Shown: piece after piece, positions 17,946 to 24,379 of the stretch
Position numbering within the stretch: position 1 is the first letter of the stretch
Layout of the letters: every line of letters begins with the position of its first letter
Source: a phage
Assembly (NCBI GenBank): GCA_021469345.1
Contig: GCA_021469345.1_3049.1
Reading direction: 5' to 3' (one strand)
DNA length: 64,000 nt
The notes under the pieces: model-generated
The model's input: the letters and a program-made list of their open reading frames with translations, nothing else
Database searches by the model: none
What the model was told of the DNA's origin: nothing
Position numbers and translations under genes: made by a program

Positions 17946-18661
17946 AAAAATATTTTACTATCTATAAAACTGAAATATTAAATTTAAAGACAGGTATTAA
18001 GAAATACTATTATGGTCGACATATAACTAATAACATCAATGATTCGTATGTTGGTAGTGGAAATTATATAGAACGTGTAAAAGTGTCAAATGACCACATA
18101 TTATCAAAAACGGTTTTAGAAGTTTTTGATAATTATGATAAAATGGTACAAGCTGAAATATTATATATCATGGCAGGTAAATTGAAATATGGAAAAAACT
18201 GTGTTAACCTGTCATACGGGGGTGAAGGAGGAAAGGTTGCAGATGAAACTAGGATAAAATGCAAAAAGCATTCTATAAATTTATGGAAAAATCCTAATCA
18301 TATACAGCATATGAAGAAAAAGATGAAAGAGGTCACATCCACGCCGGAAGCTAAATTAAACACTTCAATAAAAACTTCGCAACGATATAAGGACCCAGTT
18401 TTTGTTAGAAAAGTTAGTAATATTATTAAAAAGAAACTAAGCAATCCTACAGTAAAAGAAAAGCATATTAATGGAATTAAAGCTGCAAAGCGTTCTCATT
18501 TAACTATATGGCAGTATGAAGATGAATTATTCGAGCTTTGGAAAGAAACTAAATATGGATGGAGAAAATTTACAAAGGAAGCTATAAAACACGGATATCC
18601 AAATGAACCGTATCGTAGTATGGTATCAACTTTTCAGAAAAGACATTTAGAAGAATCCTAA
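17942..18661 (+). CDS. GIY-YIG homing endonuclease-like protein, paralogous to SegB
   Basis: KKYYYG...YVGSG...NLSYGGEGG parallels KIYIG...YMGSG...NLKLGGEGG of the 10-675 ORF. Confidence 0.65.
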   Translation: MKKYFTIYKTEILNLKTGIKKYYYGRHITNNINDSYVGSGNYIERVKVSNDHILSKTVLEVFDNYDKMVQAEILYIMAGKLKYGKNCVNLSYGGEGGKVADETRIKCKKHSINLWKNPNHIQHMKKKMKEVTSTPEAKLNTSIKTSQRYKDPVFVRKVSNIIKKKLSNPTVKEKHINGIKAAKRSHLTIWQYEDELFELWKETKYGWRKFTKEAIKHGYPNEPYRSMVSTFQKRHLEES

Positions 18662-19106: not shown

Positions 19107-19379
19107 ATGAACGCTAAAGATATTTTCAACCTGGTAAATTACAACGATGGTAAATTTAAATCTGAAGCACAAAGCAAGTTCTTTAATGACATCTCAATCG
19201 GAGGTGAAATCACTGTTGATGGAGGACAAATTTACAAATCCCGTTGGAATTGGATCGTTATTATCGATGAGATTGGTATTGTAGAAATTTATAAAAATAC
19301 GAAAATCGTGCATTACACTGGTCTCGTGATACTAACGAACAGTACAAAAAGGATAAAGCATCTAAATTATCTCGTGTAA
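19107..19379 (+). CDS. hypothetical protein; 3' part may be frameshifted into the next ORF
   Basis: ATG with GGAGG SD; -1 frame open from 19295 through 19630 with protein-like composition. Confidence 0.5.
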   Translation: MNAKDIFNLVNYNDGKFKSEAQSKFFNDISIGGEITVDGGQIYKSRWNWIVIIDEIGIVEIYKNTKIVHYTGLVILTNSTKRIKHLNYLV

Positions 19380-19417
19380 CTCAAGAAGATATTGAGTTCA
19401 TCAAGAAAGATATTTTG

Positions 19418-19630
19418 ATGTATGATAACTTAATTGCTGAAGAGCAAGCTGTTATTGATAAATTTGATGAGATTAAAGCTTCTCGTGAAATTCCTGATTT
19501 TATGAAAGAATCAGTAAATGAACGATACACTCTCATTTCAGAGCGTATTGAAACTTACAAAAAGCAAAGAGCTGAACGCCAAAATACTCTTCGGAAGTTT
19601 GAAGAACGGTTAAAGACGGTACTCGCATAA
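19418..19630 (+). CDS. hypothetical protein, possibly the C-terminal part of the 19107 gene
   Basis: first ATG in a frame that is open for 41 codons upstream. Confidence 0.4.
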   Translation: MYDNLIAEEQAVIDKFDEIKASREIPDFMKESVNERYTLISERIETYKKQRAERQNTLRKFEERLKTVLA

Positions 19631-19685
19631 CCGCTTTATACCAAGGATGGTATAATGGTTCTAAGCCCTTTTAACTGAGATTATT

Positions 19686-19925
19686 ATGAAACAGTTGATA
19701 ATTAAAAGATTGAATTTATTGATATGTTGTTTATGTATAGTAATTGCATATGGTTATTACGCAATTAATGATTATATGCATTATAAAGATTATGATGTTA
19801 CTGTAGTTAAACCCTTACAGGAACTCAAGGAAAGGGGTCTAGTTTATCGTTTATTGCTGTATATGAACTCAAAGACGGTTATAGATTTAGCGAATATATT
19901 TCGCCAGAGATGTATTCTTCAATAG
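19686..19925 (+). CDS. hypothetical small membrane protein
   Basis: ORF track; hydrophobic N-terminus. Confidence 0.35.
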   Translation: MKQLIIKRLNLLICCLCIVIAYGYYAINDYMHYKDYDVTVVKPLQELKERGLVYRLLLYMNSKTVIDLANIFRQRCILQ

Positions 19926-20099
19926 AAAAAGGTGATAATATTACTGTAAGTTTACGTCCTTTCGACGTAAAACAGACATTGTTTGATAATATTGTTTGGT
20001 TCTTTGGAATGGTATTAGTTCAATCTATATGTGGTGCTTATATAGTCTGTTCCATCTTATTCTGTATATTTAGTAAAATTGAAATTGAGTGAGGAAAAT

Positions 20100-20987
20100 A
20101 TGTCAGTAGTAATTAATAATGTCAATGCAGTAATTAAATCTTTAGTTAATAAAAAATCAAATGAATGGACTGTACTTCAACACGACGAGTCAGATAAATT
20201 TTTTCATAAATTTAACCCAGTACTAAATTTAAATGTTATTGATAAAGATGTTCACGCCGAAATTTTAGATAAGTTTAAAGTTGATATTGGATTTGGATTA
20301 GAAAAACATTTACAACGAACAAACGGGTCTGGAATGCTTTTATCTAATCGCATTATGAAAGCCCTTAATAAAATTGGAGCATTGTCTCGTATTAACGCGA
20401 GTGAAATCCTTCGTAATTATAATAAAGGATATGACCTTTATGGTCGACTAATGCCGAAATTATCATTTGACCAAATGATCGCAGATTTGTGGGAAAATCA
20501 ACGACGATTATTAGCATTAGGCGCTCGATTGGCTAAAGGTCTAGATAAACAAATGATTTTTAAAACTAATAATACAGAAGACCTTAAATGCTTTAAATTT
20601 AGCACTCGTGGAGATGATTATTACGTCAGAGCTCACTCTACAGATTATGCTAATATGGGTCATCATCTCTGTTTAGCTTTTGAAGTTTTAAAAGAAGCCG
20701 GAACATTAGAATATGTGTCTGGTGCAAAATGCCCTATTGGTTCAAGTTGTATTTTAATTTATCGCCCGGATGAATCCAGTTCAACTAAATTGCCTACAAA
20801 ACCTGTACCAGTTCGCAGTAACGAAAAACATTCTGAACAAATTGATTATTTTAATAAGCAAATTGAAGAGCTGAATATTTCTATTCAACAATATGACGAT
20901 GAAATTTTCAGACTATCTGGACTGAGTAGTAAAGCTAAATCTGAGCGTGAAAAGTTAATTAAAATTGTTGATTTACTTAAATCTTAA
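20100..20987 (+). CDS. hypothetical protein, first of a tandem array with C-terminal coiled coil
   Basis: trimmed to ATG 20100 with GAGGAA SD; C-terminal coiled-coil tail. Confidence 0.6.
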   Translation: MSVVINNVNAVIKSLVNKKSNEWTVLQHDESDKFFHKFNPVLNLNVIDKDVHAEILDKFKVDIGFGLEKHLQRTNGSGMLLSNRIMKALNKIGALSRINASEILRNYNKGYDLYGRLMPKLSFDQMIADLWENQRRLLALGARLAKGLDKQMIFKTNNTEDLKCFKFSTRGDDYYVRAHSTDYANMGHHLCLAFEVLKEAGTLEYVSGAKCPIGSSCILIYRPDESSSTKLPTKPVPVRSNEKHSEQIDYFNKQIEELNISIQQYDDEIFRLSGLSSKAKSEREKLIKIVDLLKS

Positions 20988-20995
20988 GGAACACT

Positions 20996-22024
20996 ATGAA
21001 AACTCGTTCTCAAATTGAAGATATGGTTCGTAATGCCAGTTATACTCGTGATGTTATGACATTTTTGTGTGAAAATAATTTAGACCCTGATAAAGTTAAT
21101 CGTGTTATTCATCACTTTAAGTATACGAATAGCAGTGAATGGGTGCGTAATTTTAGTAAAGCAGGGTATATTACACAAATGACTGCTCGTGAACAGCTCA
21201 CCGATTTCTGTAAAACTATTGATTATAAAAATCCTTTGATTGTTCAAGGCGTTGGTCAGAGTAAGGTTGATTTATCAACAGGATTTTTTAATCCAAATCA
21301 TTATCGTCTTGAATGGAGATTTATTGCTCTATTCCGTAAACAATTAAAGCAAATTTTGTCTACTGCTAGTCGATTAAAAGGTTCTGATATTAACTTAAAG
21401 AATCTGAAATTTGATGGTTATACTCTTCAGATGGAAGTAAGACCGTTAAAAGAAAATAATAGAACTGCACGAATTAGCTTTAAGCCTAATACAAAAAATT
21501 CTCTTTCAATTTGTGAATGCCTTAAATCACAGTTGACAGAAGCATTTAAGTATATGGATGTTGTTGCTGCTGTTCAATCTAAGATTTTACCTCGTTTTGA
21601 GCGAAATTGGGAACATACAACAACGTATGAACTTGATATGATCGTTTCATTTAAATACGATTTTTTGAGAAAGGACGAAGTCACGCAAGAGAAAAAGCAG
21701 GAAGTACAAGATAACTTAAATTTAAATTTATCTAATTACTTATCAAACGATCCTAAATTTTGGATGTATAGTTCAGGTAATAAAGATGCATGGAAATTCA
21801 ATAAAGTGAATTTTCTTCCTATTGAAAATCCGAGTCTTAAACCTGTTGAAAAATGGCACGCGGATGCGATTGAGAAGTCCCTTAAGGCAGTAGATGATGA
21901 ACTCGTTAAAGCGACCAATGAAGTGCTAAAAGCTGAAAAGGTGTTAGAACAAGCTCAGTCAAGGGTTCAAAATCTGACAAAGCAACGTTCTAAACTGAAC
22001 AATGCACTAAATGCACTAAACTAG
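20996..22024 (+). CDS. tandem paralog family member (342 aa)
   Basis: MKTR start, KQILSTASRL and YMDVV motifs shared with the 22082 and 23136 ORFs. Confidence 0.65.
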   Translation: MKTRSQIEDMVRNASYTRDVMTFLCENNLDPDKVNRVIHHFKYTNSSEWVRNFSKAGYITQMTAREQLTDFCKTIDYKNPLIVQGVGQSKVDLSTGFFNPNHYRLEWRFIALFRKQLKQILSTASRLKGSDINLKNLKFDGYTLQMEVRPLKENNRTARISFKPNTKNSLSICECLKSQLTEAFKYMDVVAAVQSKILPRFERNWEHTTTYELDMIVSFKYDFLRKDEVTQEKKQEVQDNLNLNLSNYLSNDPKFWMYSSGNKDAWKFNKVNFLPIENPSLKPVEKWHADAIEKSLKAVDDELVKATNEVLKAEKVLEQAQSRVQNLTKQRSKLNNALNALN

Positions 22025-22053
22025 TTTACTTTGCCACAAGGATGTGGTATAAT
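22024..22053 (+). promoter_or_regulatory. T4-type early promoter
   Basis: GTTTAC 22024-22029, 18-nt spacer, TATAAT 22048-22053. Confidence 0.65.
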
Positions 22054-22081
22054 GTTCTTACTTTCTACTGAGGAGATTAAT

Positions 22082-23083
22082 ATGACTCGTAACGAATATA
22101 TCAAATCATTCAATAGAGTTATTGATGATAAAGCTATACCGATGTTTGGCCAAAATAGCGTTCTTTCTATTATCAATCAATGGCTCAATAGTGTTGATGC
22201 AGGTATTGTTTCTTCTACTAAATTTATTCATGAAATTCGTAAAATTTCTAGCCGTGTAGATAAAGATCTTATCAAGAAAACCTTTAAAGAGTCTCGTCTT
22301 CTTTCATATTTGGTTAATCGGGATATTCTTGGTAATTTTGGGAAAGAAATTAAACGAACCAAAGATGTAGTAGGATACAATTGGTTCGGTGATGTTAATA
22401 CTTATCATCTTAATACTAAAGAAGACCCTGAGAATATTTTTACTCGTCGTTGGGTTAGTGAATTTAGGAGTTTTACGAAGCAAATTCTAAAATCAGCTTC
22501 TAAATTATGTTATGGCGATTATCGTCAAATTCATCCTTTAGCTGATGATATGATTATAGCAGAAGAATATGAACTTGATAAAAACAAAGTAGCTATTTTT
22601 ATTAATTACAGATTTTTTACACCAGAAACTAACCAAAAGAACATTAATAAATTTTTCTCAATTGCTAGCACTATAACTCGTCAATTAGAGACCGCATTAC
22701 TTTGTATGGAAACAGTAGAAAATATTCATACTTATCCTTTTAAGAATATATGCGGTTGGGAAGGATATAAACTCGTAATTAGCCTTCGTGAAGTGAAATG
22801 TGCTTATTCACCTACTGATAAAGAAATTTACCAACAAAAATGCGAAGAAATTGTGAATACTCCTAAAGAAGAAACTACCCTTGAGGAACTAATGGAATGT
22901 CTTGATGATTCGCCTGAACCGGTAGAAATTCGTCCAGAAGTTATTGCATTAGAAAAAGCTTATAAAGAAGCTCTAGAAATTTCTAATAAAGCACAGAAAG
23001 AATATGAGAAGGCTAAAAGGATTTGGGAAGAATCTGTCAATCGCTTGGATCGTCTTGAACAAGCTTTACAATTAATTAAGTAA
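22082..23083 (+). CDS. tandem paralog family member (333 aa)
   Basis: trimmed to ATG 22082 with GAGGAG SD; shares KQILKSASKL motif and coiled-coil tail. Confidence 0.65.
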   Translation: MTRNEYIKSFNRVIDDKAIPMFGQNSVLSIINQWLNSVDAGIVSSTKFIHEIRKISSRVDKDLIKKTFKESRLLSYLVNRDILGNFGKEIKRTKDVVGYNWFGDVNTYHLNTKEDPENIFTRRWVSEFRSFTKQILKSASKLCYGDYRQIHPLADDMIIAEEYELDKNKVAIFINYRFFTPETNQKNINKFFSIASTITRQLETALLCMETVENIHTYPFKNICGWEGYKLVISLREVKCAYSPTDKEIYQQKCEEIVNTPKEETTLEELMECLDDSPEPVEIRPEVIALEKAYKEALEISNKAQKEYEKAKRIWEESVNRLDRLEQALQLIK

Positions 23084-23135
23084 TTTAAAGCCAAGGATGG
23101 CTCGGAGTATAAACTATTAACCAAGTGAGAAGAAC

Positions 23136-24068
23136 ATGAAAACTCGTAAACATTATATTGATTATTTTGACAGTCTTATTACTAAACACCGTAATTATCA
23201 GATCGGGCACAGAGCAGTAATCAATAATATTCTTCGTGATTTCCTTCAATATGTTGGTCAGGAAAATCATATCTGTAAAGATACTCAAAACGCTTATTCT
23301 CATTCGTTAGGCAATTTGCTTGAATGGTTTAAACGTTCTCGTATGTTATCTTCTACTGTAGCTCGTGATAACATTAAAAACTTTATGAAACCGAGCTTTA
23401 TTAAATCTGTGACATCTAAAACCGATTTGGTTGAATTTACTATTATTAACGATGTTAAAAAGACTCATTTAGCTGATTGGTTATCTACCATTCCTGAAAC
23501 TAAATTTGCTGATAAATTTGCTTGTGAATTCAATAAACAAGTTAATATGCTTTTTAAACATTCATGTAAATTATTCACAGGCGGCGATGATCGTACAAAT
23601 AAAGTTCATGTTAAAGATTGGGTTACTGCAGTGTTCAAACCAACTGGTAATGGTAACGCATCATTATCAATTGATATCCAGGTTCCTTATTACTACTCAC
23701 GTAATCTCGGTACTATGAAAGCCGAAGAAATTAATAAGCGCAACAAAACCGTTCGTTCTCTGTCTTATAAACTTCGCATGATGTTACAGACTATGGATGT
23801 TGTTGAAATGTTCGACGAAACCGAAGATAACGGTTCAATGTTATATAGTTCTCGTACCCGAATTAAGTTGAAGAACCCTAACGAGTATAAACTTAAGACT
23901 ATTAAAGAACCTAAAGTAGAAAAGGTTGATAACTTGAGCGAAGAACGTGAATATCTCAATTCTCGTTTGATTGAAGTTGAAGCCCAAATTGCAGAACACA
24001 CCAAATTGTTAAAAGCTCTTAATGCAAAAGCAAATGGTTTACGTAATGCTATTGAGGTATTGAAATGA
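23136..24068 (+). CDS. tandem paralog family member (310 aa)
   Basis: MKTR start, NKQVNMLFKHSCKLF and TMDVV motifs, coiled-coil tail. Confidence 0.65.
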   Translation: MKTRKHYIDYFDSLITKHRNYQIGHRAVINNILRDFLQYVGQENHICKDTQNAYSHSLGNLLEWFKRSRMLSSTVARDNIKNFMKPSFIKSVTSKTDLVEFTIINDVKKTHLADWLSTIPETKFADKFACEFNKQVNMLFKHSCKLFTGGDDRTNKVHVKDWVTAVFKPTGNGNASLSIDIQVPYYYSRNLGTMKAEEINKRNKTVRSLSYKLRMMLQTMDVVEMFDETEDNGSMLYSSRTRIKLKNPNEYKLKTIKEPKVEKVDNLSEEREYLNSRLIEVEAQIAEHTKLLKALNAKANGLRNAIEVLK

Positions 24069-24379
24069 AAAAGCGTCTATTAGAAGACATTGCAGCTTCA
24101 AGTAATTCCAGTTTAATTAAAATTATTATGGCCGGTGAAGAAGACGATTTGGAAATGCGTGGAAAGATTCATGGTTGTGATGATTATAGCCCTCCTGTTA
24201 ATTGGGATTCTGTAATGGTCATGGTTAAACGTCGCGAAAGGGCTTCTAAAAACGTTCCTAATTGTCCTGAATGCGGTACTGAACAGGTACAATTAGTTCA
24301 TTGGCAGACTAGTAATCTTCGTTATAAATGTCGCCATTGTAAACACCGATTTGACCGAGAAGAAAATGACCAAGCGTAA
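24065..24379 (+). CDS. zinc-ribbon protein
   Basis: CPECG...CRHCKH four-Cys motif. Confidence 0.55.

Follow-up and report, generated by a model that had tools for sequence, protein, structure and literature searches.

Are four consecutive genes of similar length in a T4-like phage copies of one another, and what might such a set of copies do? The question arises in a stretch of phage DNA of 64,000 nucleotides (contig GCA_021469345.1_3049.1; hereafter, the window), in which an earlier note had proposed that positions 20100-24068 hold a tandem array of diverged paralogs with coiled-coil tails, perhaps encoding host-interaction or anti-defense factors. The window is a genome segment of a T4-like (Tequatrovirus) phage: a search with its region 20000-24100 found 657 matching phage records, with identity reaching 94.5% in the best of them. 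The four open reading frames (ORFs), which have the lengths and positions that the note gave them, are collinear with T4 nrdC.6, nrdC.5, nrdC.4, and nrdC.3, in that order:

20100-20987, + strand: ORF A, 295 amino acids (aa), ortholog of T4 nrdC.6; phrog_2257, precomputed Pfam family PF26899
20996-22024, + strand: ORF B, 342 aa, ortholog of T4 nrdC.5; phrog_2351, Pfam DUF7235/PF23882
22082-23083, + strand: ORF C, 333 aa, ortholog of T4 nrdC.4; phrog_1435, precomputed Pfam family PF26897
23136-24068, + strand: ORF D, 310 aa, ortholog of T4 nrdC.3; phrog_1435

Amino acid identity to the T4 protein is 93.4% for A (over the first 259 aa), 95.3% for B (full length, in the same position between nrdC.6 and nrdC.4), 93.7% for C, and 62.7% for D. 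From profile and structure comparison, we conclude that the four ORFs are all homologous and make up a single superfamily (NrdC.3-6) joining three database families, PF23882, PF26897, and PF26899. The array is the result of repeated tandem duplication of one ancestral early gene. We consider it moderately probable that A, C, and D of this array of paralogous early genes serve, like NrdC.5, as accessory counter-defense proteins.

Relatedness and predicted architecture of the four genes

Pairwise BLASTP relates ORFs C and D (E 5e-7, 26% identity over 150 residues), is marginal for B and C (E 0.006), and is insignificant for A-B (0.19) and B-D (0.27). Pfam and PHROGs assign the genes to three separate families, and ORFs A, C, and D have no match to the DUF7235 model (PF23882) in a Pfam scan, whereas ORF B matches it over its full length with 426.6 bits (E 8e-128; the gathering score is 30 bits). 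The weak pairwise scores and the separate families would favor the view that the shared motifs are chance or low-complexity matches among four unrelated genes. Profile-profile comparison speaks against it. With family alignments drawn from 14 related loci in four divergence tiers and compared by hhalign, C and D align over 288 columns (probability 97.6%, E 2.6e-12) and B and C over 260 collinear columns (33.6%, E 4.4e-4). For B-C, none of 32 column shuffles attained the observed score (z 7.8), and z was still 5.8 after removal of the tails. B-D alone is not significant, and the homology of this pair follows by transitivity via C.

ORF A is the most divergent member of the superfamily. Its first-pass profile gave E values of 0.035-0.26 and probabilities of at most 1.4% against B, C, or D, mostly inside the shuffle range (A-D at full length reached z 3.2). 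An exhaustive HMMER search with a B+C+D profile returned 19 matching cluster representatives out of 1.84 billion, among them three distant members (P0237, P0239, and P0241) that retain all five motif blocks described below. The significant result came from an enriched profile, in which these distant members were added and the A family was diversified: A then matched B/C/D with a probability of 93.9%, an E value of 1.6e-7, and a score of 57.7 over 274 collinear columns. Column-shuffled controls had a mean of 13.4 and a maximum of 18.9; the observed score lies at z 18.9, and none of 60 shuffles attained it.

The motifs that had drawn attention to the locus proved to be genuine. Two proteins, B and D, start with MKTR, and C starts with MTR. 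KQILSTASRL, KQILKSASKL, and KQVNMLFKHSCKLF, as well as the blocks YMDVV, CMETV, and TMDVV, are all present, and those of B, C, and D are in register in a MAFFT alignment of 32 sequences from the three families, which has seven invariant columns (T3, R4, F71, V86, M187, V190, and K220). The F-x-KQ(I/V)L-type motif and the YMDVV-type block are real family signatures; the earlier note saw the former in three proteins, and the fourth, nrdC.6, carries a diverged form of it, NQRRLLALGARLAKG. Five collinear blocks can be defined, namely, an N-terminal (K)TR; F..SR.L......L..F; F[RN]....[IL]L..[AS]..L; AL..M..V; and the tail block QR..L..A[IL]..L[KN]. ORF A aligns to all of them save the N-terminal KTR, and the blocks and the tail motif are retained even in members less than 20% identical. 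ORF D is the closest paralog of nrdC.4.

Structure comparison is in line with the profiles. The AlphaFold2 (AF2) model of C has a mean predicted local distance difference test score (pLDDT) of 81.8 and a predicted template modeling score of 0.65; that of B (pLDDT 71.2) has its secondary-structure elements in the same order. As modeled for B and C, the architecture that the four proteins appear to have in common starts with ~80 residues of helical bundle, continues with an alpha/beta core and 30-50 disordered linker residues, and closes with a long heptad helix of 45-60 residues. The core runs from a beta element through two helices, a beta hairpin, and a long helix to a second beta hairpin, and the low-confidence linker spans residues 229-279 in B and about 261-283 in C. 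In Foldseek searches, the C model retrieved an nrdC.3-type protein (1.4e-8) and the nrdC.6 proteins of JS10 (2.9e-5) and Sf25 (2e-4), each with a probability of 1.0; the template modeling (TM) scores of these nrdC.3 and nrdC.6 matches are 0.3-0.45, low values that we attribute to flexible multipart models. Further matches of this model were to proteins of 300-375 aa from T4-like phages that infect Acinetobacter, Klebsiella, Erwinia, Serratia, Pectobacterium, and Yersinia. The top matches of the B model, in Mineola (4e-8) and Cronus (3e-7), are both matched by C as well, but the multiple-sequence alignment behind the B model included C-family rows, so that the similarity between the two models is partly built in.

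Profile scores far above those of column-shuffled controls, alignments collinear over 260-290 columns, Foldseek cross-matches between the families, and the match of A to B/C/D together refute the view that the genes are unrelated, whose probability we put close to nil. hhalign, the shuffle controls, and Foldseek agree that the four ORFs are diverged tandem copies; the known T4 genes to which they map, nrdC.6, nrdC.5, nrdC.4, and nrdC.3, are mutually related.

All four proteins end in a predicted coiled coil, as had been noted:

20832-20984, + strand: heptad helix of A, about residues 245-295, ending KLIKIVDLLKS and interrupted at RLSGLS
21842-22021, + strand: coiled-coil helix of B, residues 283-342, ending KLNNALNALN
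22934-23080, + strand: terminal helix of C, residues 285-333, ending RLEQALQLIK
23919-24065, + strand: heptad helix of D, about residues 262-310

Over the last 56 residues, L, I, V, M, or A occupies 15 of 16 heptad a/d positions in B, 12 in D, 11 in C, and 10 in A. AF2 predicts a single long terminal helix of 48 residues in C (285-332) and 59 residues in B (283-341), and the weak Pfam matches on the tails are all to coiled-coil families. A common terminal motif, L-x-x-[AI]-[LIV]-x-[LAV]-[LI]-[KN], closes the tails in each of the four families, and this end is the best-conserved segment between genera, nrdC.5 included. In one related locus (L014, 6941-7912), an nrdC.4 homolog has lost most of its C-terminal helix through an in-frame deletion and retains the terminal ...DRLEQALELLK. 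A 173-aa protein (P0236) on an 803-bp metagenome contig (L020) combines an unrelated N-terminal part of 118 residues with a near-identical nrdC.5 coiled-coil tail; its N-terminal half has no match in the window or in the fetched loci. It may have arisen by a domain swap or may be a chimera of the assembly, and we set it aside as evidence for a modular tail since it comes from this single short contig.

Copy number, selection, and variants

A comparison across genera showed one, three, or four copies of the gene, depending on the genus. The order nrdC.6-nrdC.5-nrdC.4 is kept in more distant T4-like loci, where nrdC.2 follows directly after nrdC.4; this makes nrdC.3 an additional copy of the T4-proper lineage, and it was found only in Tequatrovirus-level relatives. 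Klebsiella phages of the genera Jiaodavirus and Marfavirus have a single copy at the syntenic site. We asked whether ORFs of 257-262 aa just upstream of this single member in two of these phages, Klebsiella phages 17-11 and F48, are further copies; they proved to be unrelated. Tandem pairs may also exist in other genera, as the consecutive UniProt accessions E5E4A1/E5E4A2 and E5EYP0/E5EYP1 suggest. A family-profile search of the whole window found no further family members.

The copies differ in their rates of change. For the nrdC.5 protein, identity is at least 88% within Tequatrovirus but drops to 21-27% in other genera, where nrdC.4 and nrdC.6 are still about 45-50% identical. Across seven Tequatrovirus genomes, the ratio of nonsynonymous to synonymous substitution rates (dN/dS) is 0.14-0.28 for the array, above the 0.01-0.04 of nrdC, nrdC.1, and gene 49; that of pin is 0.14. 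The synonymous rate (dS) of nrdC.3 is 0.70, compared to about 0.18 for its neighbors, and the gene contains a sharply bounded variable segment:

about 23300-23900 (at its widest, 23300-24000), + strand: hypervariable cassette in nrdC.3, with sliding DNA identity to T4 of 57-67% versus 92-100% in the flanks

Several natural variants of individual copies were encountered. In the T4 reference genome (NC_000866, 52066-52893; L016), nrdC.6 encodes 275 aa, with a frameshift directly after "KQIEEL" by which the coiled-coil tail is lost; an intact tail can be read in another frame, and the window copy is intact. In a Tequatrovirus contig (L006, 7001-8003), an apparent frameshift splits nrdC.4 into ORFs of 193 and 158 aa, and BFVD holds nrdC.4 fragments of 155-158 aa from phages G8 and T2. 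Shigella phage Sf25 has an nrdC.6 of 378 aa (P0122) with an internal tandem duplication of ~83 residues (IRAHSTDY...KQIEEL occurs twice). In P0120, found on three contigs (the longest of 167058 bp), a natural deletion has joined residues 146-274 of nrdC.5 to the part of nrdC.3 that starts at about residue 132, with the joint at the microhomology "FNK(Q)VN," and the nrdC.5 tail, the whole of nrdC.4, and the nrdC.3 N terminus are lost. Microhomology-mediated deletions have been described for T4, and this one fits that pattern. We rejected P0120 as a homologous recombinant between paralogs, since the deletion joins nonequivalent positions; for the same reason, it is not evidence of homology.

Candidate functions

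A function has been published for one member of the superfamily. A T4 clone with compensatory deletions fails to plate on ECOR17 or on MG1655 with ECOR17 dsr1, and plasmid-borne T4 nrdC.5 restores its plating on MG1655 carrying dsr1 (Srikant, Guegler & Laub, eLife 2022; PMC9391042). The same paper terms nrdC.5 an early gene and is silent on the other paralogs, both as to their presence in the rescued clone and as to tests of them against Dsr1. Since the T4 version of their paralog counters Dsr1, nrdC.3, nrdC.4, and nrdC.6 are good candidates for immune inhibitors. The flanking genes point the same way: Gp49.2 inhibits OLD (PMC13096335) and NrdC.1 inhibits Septu (bioRxiv 10.1101/2025.11.20.689424), so that the region behaves as an anti-defense island. 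Like the Lon inhibitor Pin, these two are encoded in the early accessory region that also holds the array, no more than about 3 kb downstream of it; all three are unrelated small proteins outside the paralog family. The dispensability of the nrdC.1-6 block on laboratory hosts (PMC9825161) also speaks for an anti-defense role, as does the evolutionary pattern: a copy number that varies between genera, dN/dS values above those of nrdC, nrdC.1, and gene 49, the strong divergence of nrdC.5 between genera, the allelic cassette in nrdC.3, and the natural frameshift, deletion, and duplication variants. The literature search returned no report of a function for nrdC.3, nrdC.4, or nrdC.6. The anti-defense guess of the earlier note thus holds for nrdC.5, by way of a T4 ortholog 95% identical to ORF B, and it is for nrdC.6, nrdC.4, and nrdC.3 that we infer such a role.

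T4 NrdC.5 neutralizes Dsr1, a defense protein that combines a SIR2 NADase effector with a tetratricopeptide repeat (TPR) sensor for the major capsid protein. As we picture it, each of the other paralogs would be tuned to a different host sensor or sensor allele. The array would be expressed early, from a promoter upstream of nrdC.7 and from an internal one at 22024-22053, placing the inhibitors before the late structural proteins that trigger the sensors appear. More tentatively, the globular head might occupy the sensor domain of a defense protein as a nonactivating pseudo-ligand, and the coiled-coil tail might oligomerize the inhibitor and so raise its avidity. DSAD1 of an SPbeta-type phage (PMC11087589 and PMC11263360) silences a SIR2-domain NADase defense triggered by a structural protein, and it is the best functional analogy for a sensor-occupying inhibitor. 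The likeness is one of function: DSAD1 differs in phage, host, and target (DSR2, not Dsr1), and it is not known in paralog arrays. Among known systems, the nearest is T4 NrdC.5 itself (PF23882). ORF B is its ortholog, and the other three ORFs are paralogs of the same predicted architecture; these three, unlike NrdC.5, are not covered by the DUF7235 model, and no target has been reported for them.

The structural side of this proposal takes its lead from weak model similarities. Dsr1 reportedly senses the major capsid protein with a bilobed TPR sensor that Avs7 also has, and related TPR-like sensors envelop other globular structural proteins, the tail terminator included (PMC12803255). The B and C models gave many weak Foldseek matches to tail terminator and completion proteins (the class of lambda gpU, T5 p142, and the Mu, SaPI1 DUF3168, and gene transfer agent proteins), with grey-zone scores and other alpha/beta folds interleaved; no tail-family Pfam match occurred among 32 members at E values up to 1. 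The array genes also differ from those of tail terminator and completion proteins, which are late and structural, in having an early-type promoter and in being dispensable, and their products add an N-terminal helical domain and a coiled-coil tail. We offer as a hypothesis that the modeled likeness could mark an early-expressed pseudo-ligand for structure-sensing receptors. In its fullest form, which we hold to be improbable, the head domain would derive from or mimic a tail terminator or completion protein and act as an early decoy, plugging the clefts of TPR-type sensors (Dsr1, Avs7-like, and Avs15-like) while leaving them unactivated; three to four copies and the swappable nrdC.3 cassette would then be a decoy repertoire, oligomerized by the common coiled-coil tail. 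It is far less credible that the proteins themselves serve in virion structure or assembly as relatives of tail terminator or completion proteins, a reading suggested by the label of one RefSeq record on nrdC.5 and given very little probability here.

Several observations weigh against a counter-defense role for the whole array. Functional data exist for one of the four members and come from the T4 ortholog rather than from the protein of this phage, and the paper on the rescue by NrdC.5 (PMC9391042) gives no mechanism. The known Dsr1 trigger is a capsid protein and not a tail protein, so that the resemblance to tail terminators maps poorly onto the one known target, and the partly built-in likeness of the B and C models tempers the structural argument. 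Gene-wide dN/dS values, all below 1 in the seven Tequatrovirus genomes, gave no evidence of positive selection. Loss variants, such as the T4 nrdC.6 frameshift and the split nrdC.4 of L006, indicate that single copies can be dispensable.

Two other readings of the array deserve consideration. One is that nrdC.5 alone acts in counter-defense and that the other copies are drifting duplicates or have an unrelated early role, such as host takeover or nucleic acid binding. No published phenotype was found for nrdC.3, nrdC.4, or nrdC.6; the whole nrdC.1-6 block can be deleted on laboratory hosts (PMC9825161); natural inactivating variants exist; and there is a weak similarity (E 0.002-0.09) between the N-terminal helices of D and the SAM-like DNA-binding domain found in tyrosine recombinases. 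We nevertheless find this reading doubtful, as the dN/dS values indicate purifying selection on all four genes, nrdC.6 and nrdC.4 are retained between genera at the identities given above, and motif blocks and tail motif persist in the most divergent members. The other reading, which we think unlikely, makes the four proteins partners in one hetero-oligomeric complex, held together by the related coiled coils at their ends, instead of inhibitors that each act alone on a target of their own. It would account for the same terminal motif on all four tails, for the tail being the best-conserved part between genera, for the in-frame deletion in L014 that drops most of the helix and spares the terminal motif, and for the conserved nrdC.6-.5-.4 order. 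Yet the Dsr1-sensitive T4 clone is rescued by a plasmid that carries nrdC.5 alone (the clone's other paralogs are not stated), the Jiaodavirus and Marfavirus phages manage with a single syntenic copy, and the T4 reference lacks the nrdC.6 tail.

Seen as a set of putative counter-defense genes, the array has a wider interest. Our literature search found no direct inhibitor of the widespread Dsr1 sirtuin defense other than NrdC.5, which now appears as one of four paralogs with a common head-linker-coiled-coil design; this makes nrdC.3, nrdC.4, and nrdC.6 three concrete counter-defense candidates in the best-studied phage. Five motif blocks and a terminal motif, L-x-x-A-L-x-x-L-K, are defined as their conserved elements, and the idea that the proteins act on TPR sensors as pseudo-ligands is a testable structural hypothesis. 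The genes are orthologs of T4 ORFs that were already known, the function of nrdC.5 was already published, and the window itself is ordinary in that respect; what is new is the unification of the superfamily, with the joining of PF23882, PF26897, and PF26899 and the correction of a widespread "thioredoxin" misannotation, together with the shared tail motif, the copy number series, the nrdC.3 cassette, and the tail-terminator-like lead.

Promoter, database labels, and neighboring genes

The early promoter placed inside the array by the earlier note has recognizable elements:

22024-22053, + strand: T4 early-type sigma-70 promoter-like site, GTTTAC (22024-29), 17-base spacer, TGgTATAAT (22045-53)

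These elements, followed by GAGGAG and the ATG at 22082, fit the T4 early-promoter pattern. A small hairpin (22032-22049) overlaps the site. In phage Lutter (MT682714.1), a promoter is annotated at the homologous position and also before nrdC.8 and nrdC.7, in agreement with the placement. A generic promoter scan was not enriched overall (26 sites found versus 25.1 expected from shuffles), so what supports this particular site is its quality and position together with the annotation in Lutter. It is predicted to divide the array into two units, nrdC.7/.6/.5 and nrdC.4/.3/.2 onward. The 333-aa form of ORF C (ATG 22082) is the correct one: the alternative ATG at 22052 falls within the promoter -10 element, a Shine-Dalgarno sequence GAGGAG lies at 22070-22075, and M1-T2-R3 is invariant in homologs.

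Database labels give little guidance to function. PHROGs annotates the ORFs as "unknown function," and searches of Pfam, NCBIfam, and PDB sequences with the array proteins returned no functional name. The nrdC.x block (window 20100-24068) is widely labeled "thioredoxin" in GenBank records. Pfam and NCBIfam scans found no thioredoxin or glutaredoxin family in the array proteins, and the AF2 models of B and C have a different architecture; we reject the label, which appears to have been carried over from the gene name nrdC.x. The nrdC.5 protein is labeled once "coil protein" and once, in a single RefSeq record, "tail sheath stabilizer and completion protein," a label that we likewise reject as a description of the array genes. 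The N-terminal helices of nrdC.3 (D residues 30-86; window 23136-23400) have a weak match to the SAM-like N-terminal domain of tyrosine recombinases/XerD, with scores far below the cutoffs (Pfam E 0.09; NCBIfam E 0.002 and 0.011).

The array is flanked upstream by nrdC.7, nrdC.8, nrdC.9, and a mobD-like ORF and downstream by nrdC.2, nrdC.1, nrdC, pin, and gene 49. The equivalents of nrdC.8 and nrdC.7 (window 19107-20092) are each broken into two short ORFs (90 plus 71 aa and 79 plus 60 aa); compared to phage slur03, they have a 4-nucleotide deletion near 19301 and a 1-nucleotide deletion near 19810 and are otherwise 97.7% identical, and they are either real pseudogenes or products of sequence errors. 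The mobD-like ORF (window 17942-18661, 239 aa) has an ortholog of similar length in two of seven compared Tequatrovirus sequences, the window included. We read this patchiness as that expected for a mobile gene, and its N-terminal sequence suggests a homing-endonuclease-like protein. Immediately after the array, nrdC.2 (window 24065-24379) overlaps the nrdC.3 stop codon (ATGA) and encodes a zinc-ribbon-like motif, CPEC...CRHC; its product has 104 aa here versus 129 aa in slur03, and two of the seven sequences, again counting the window, have an ortholog of similar length.

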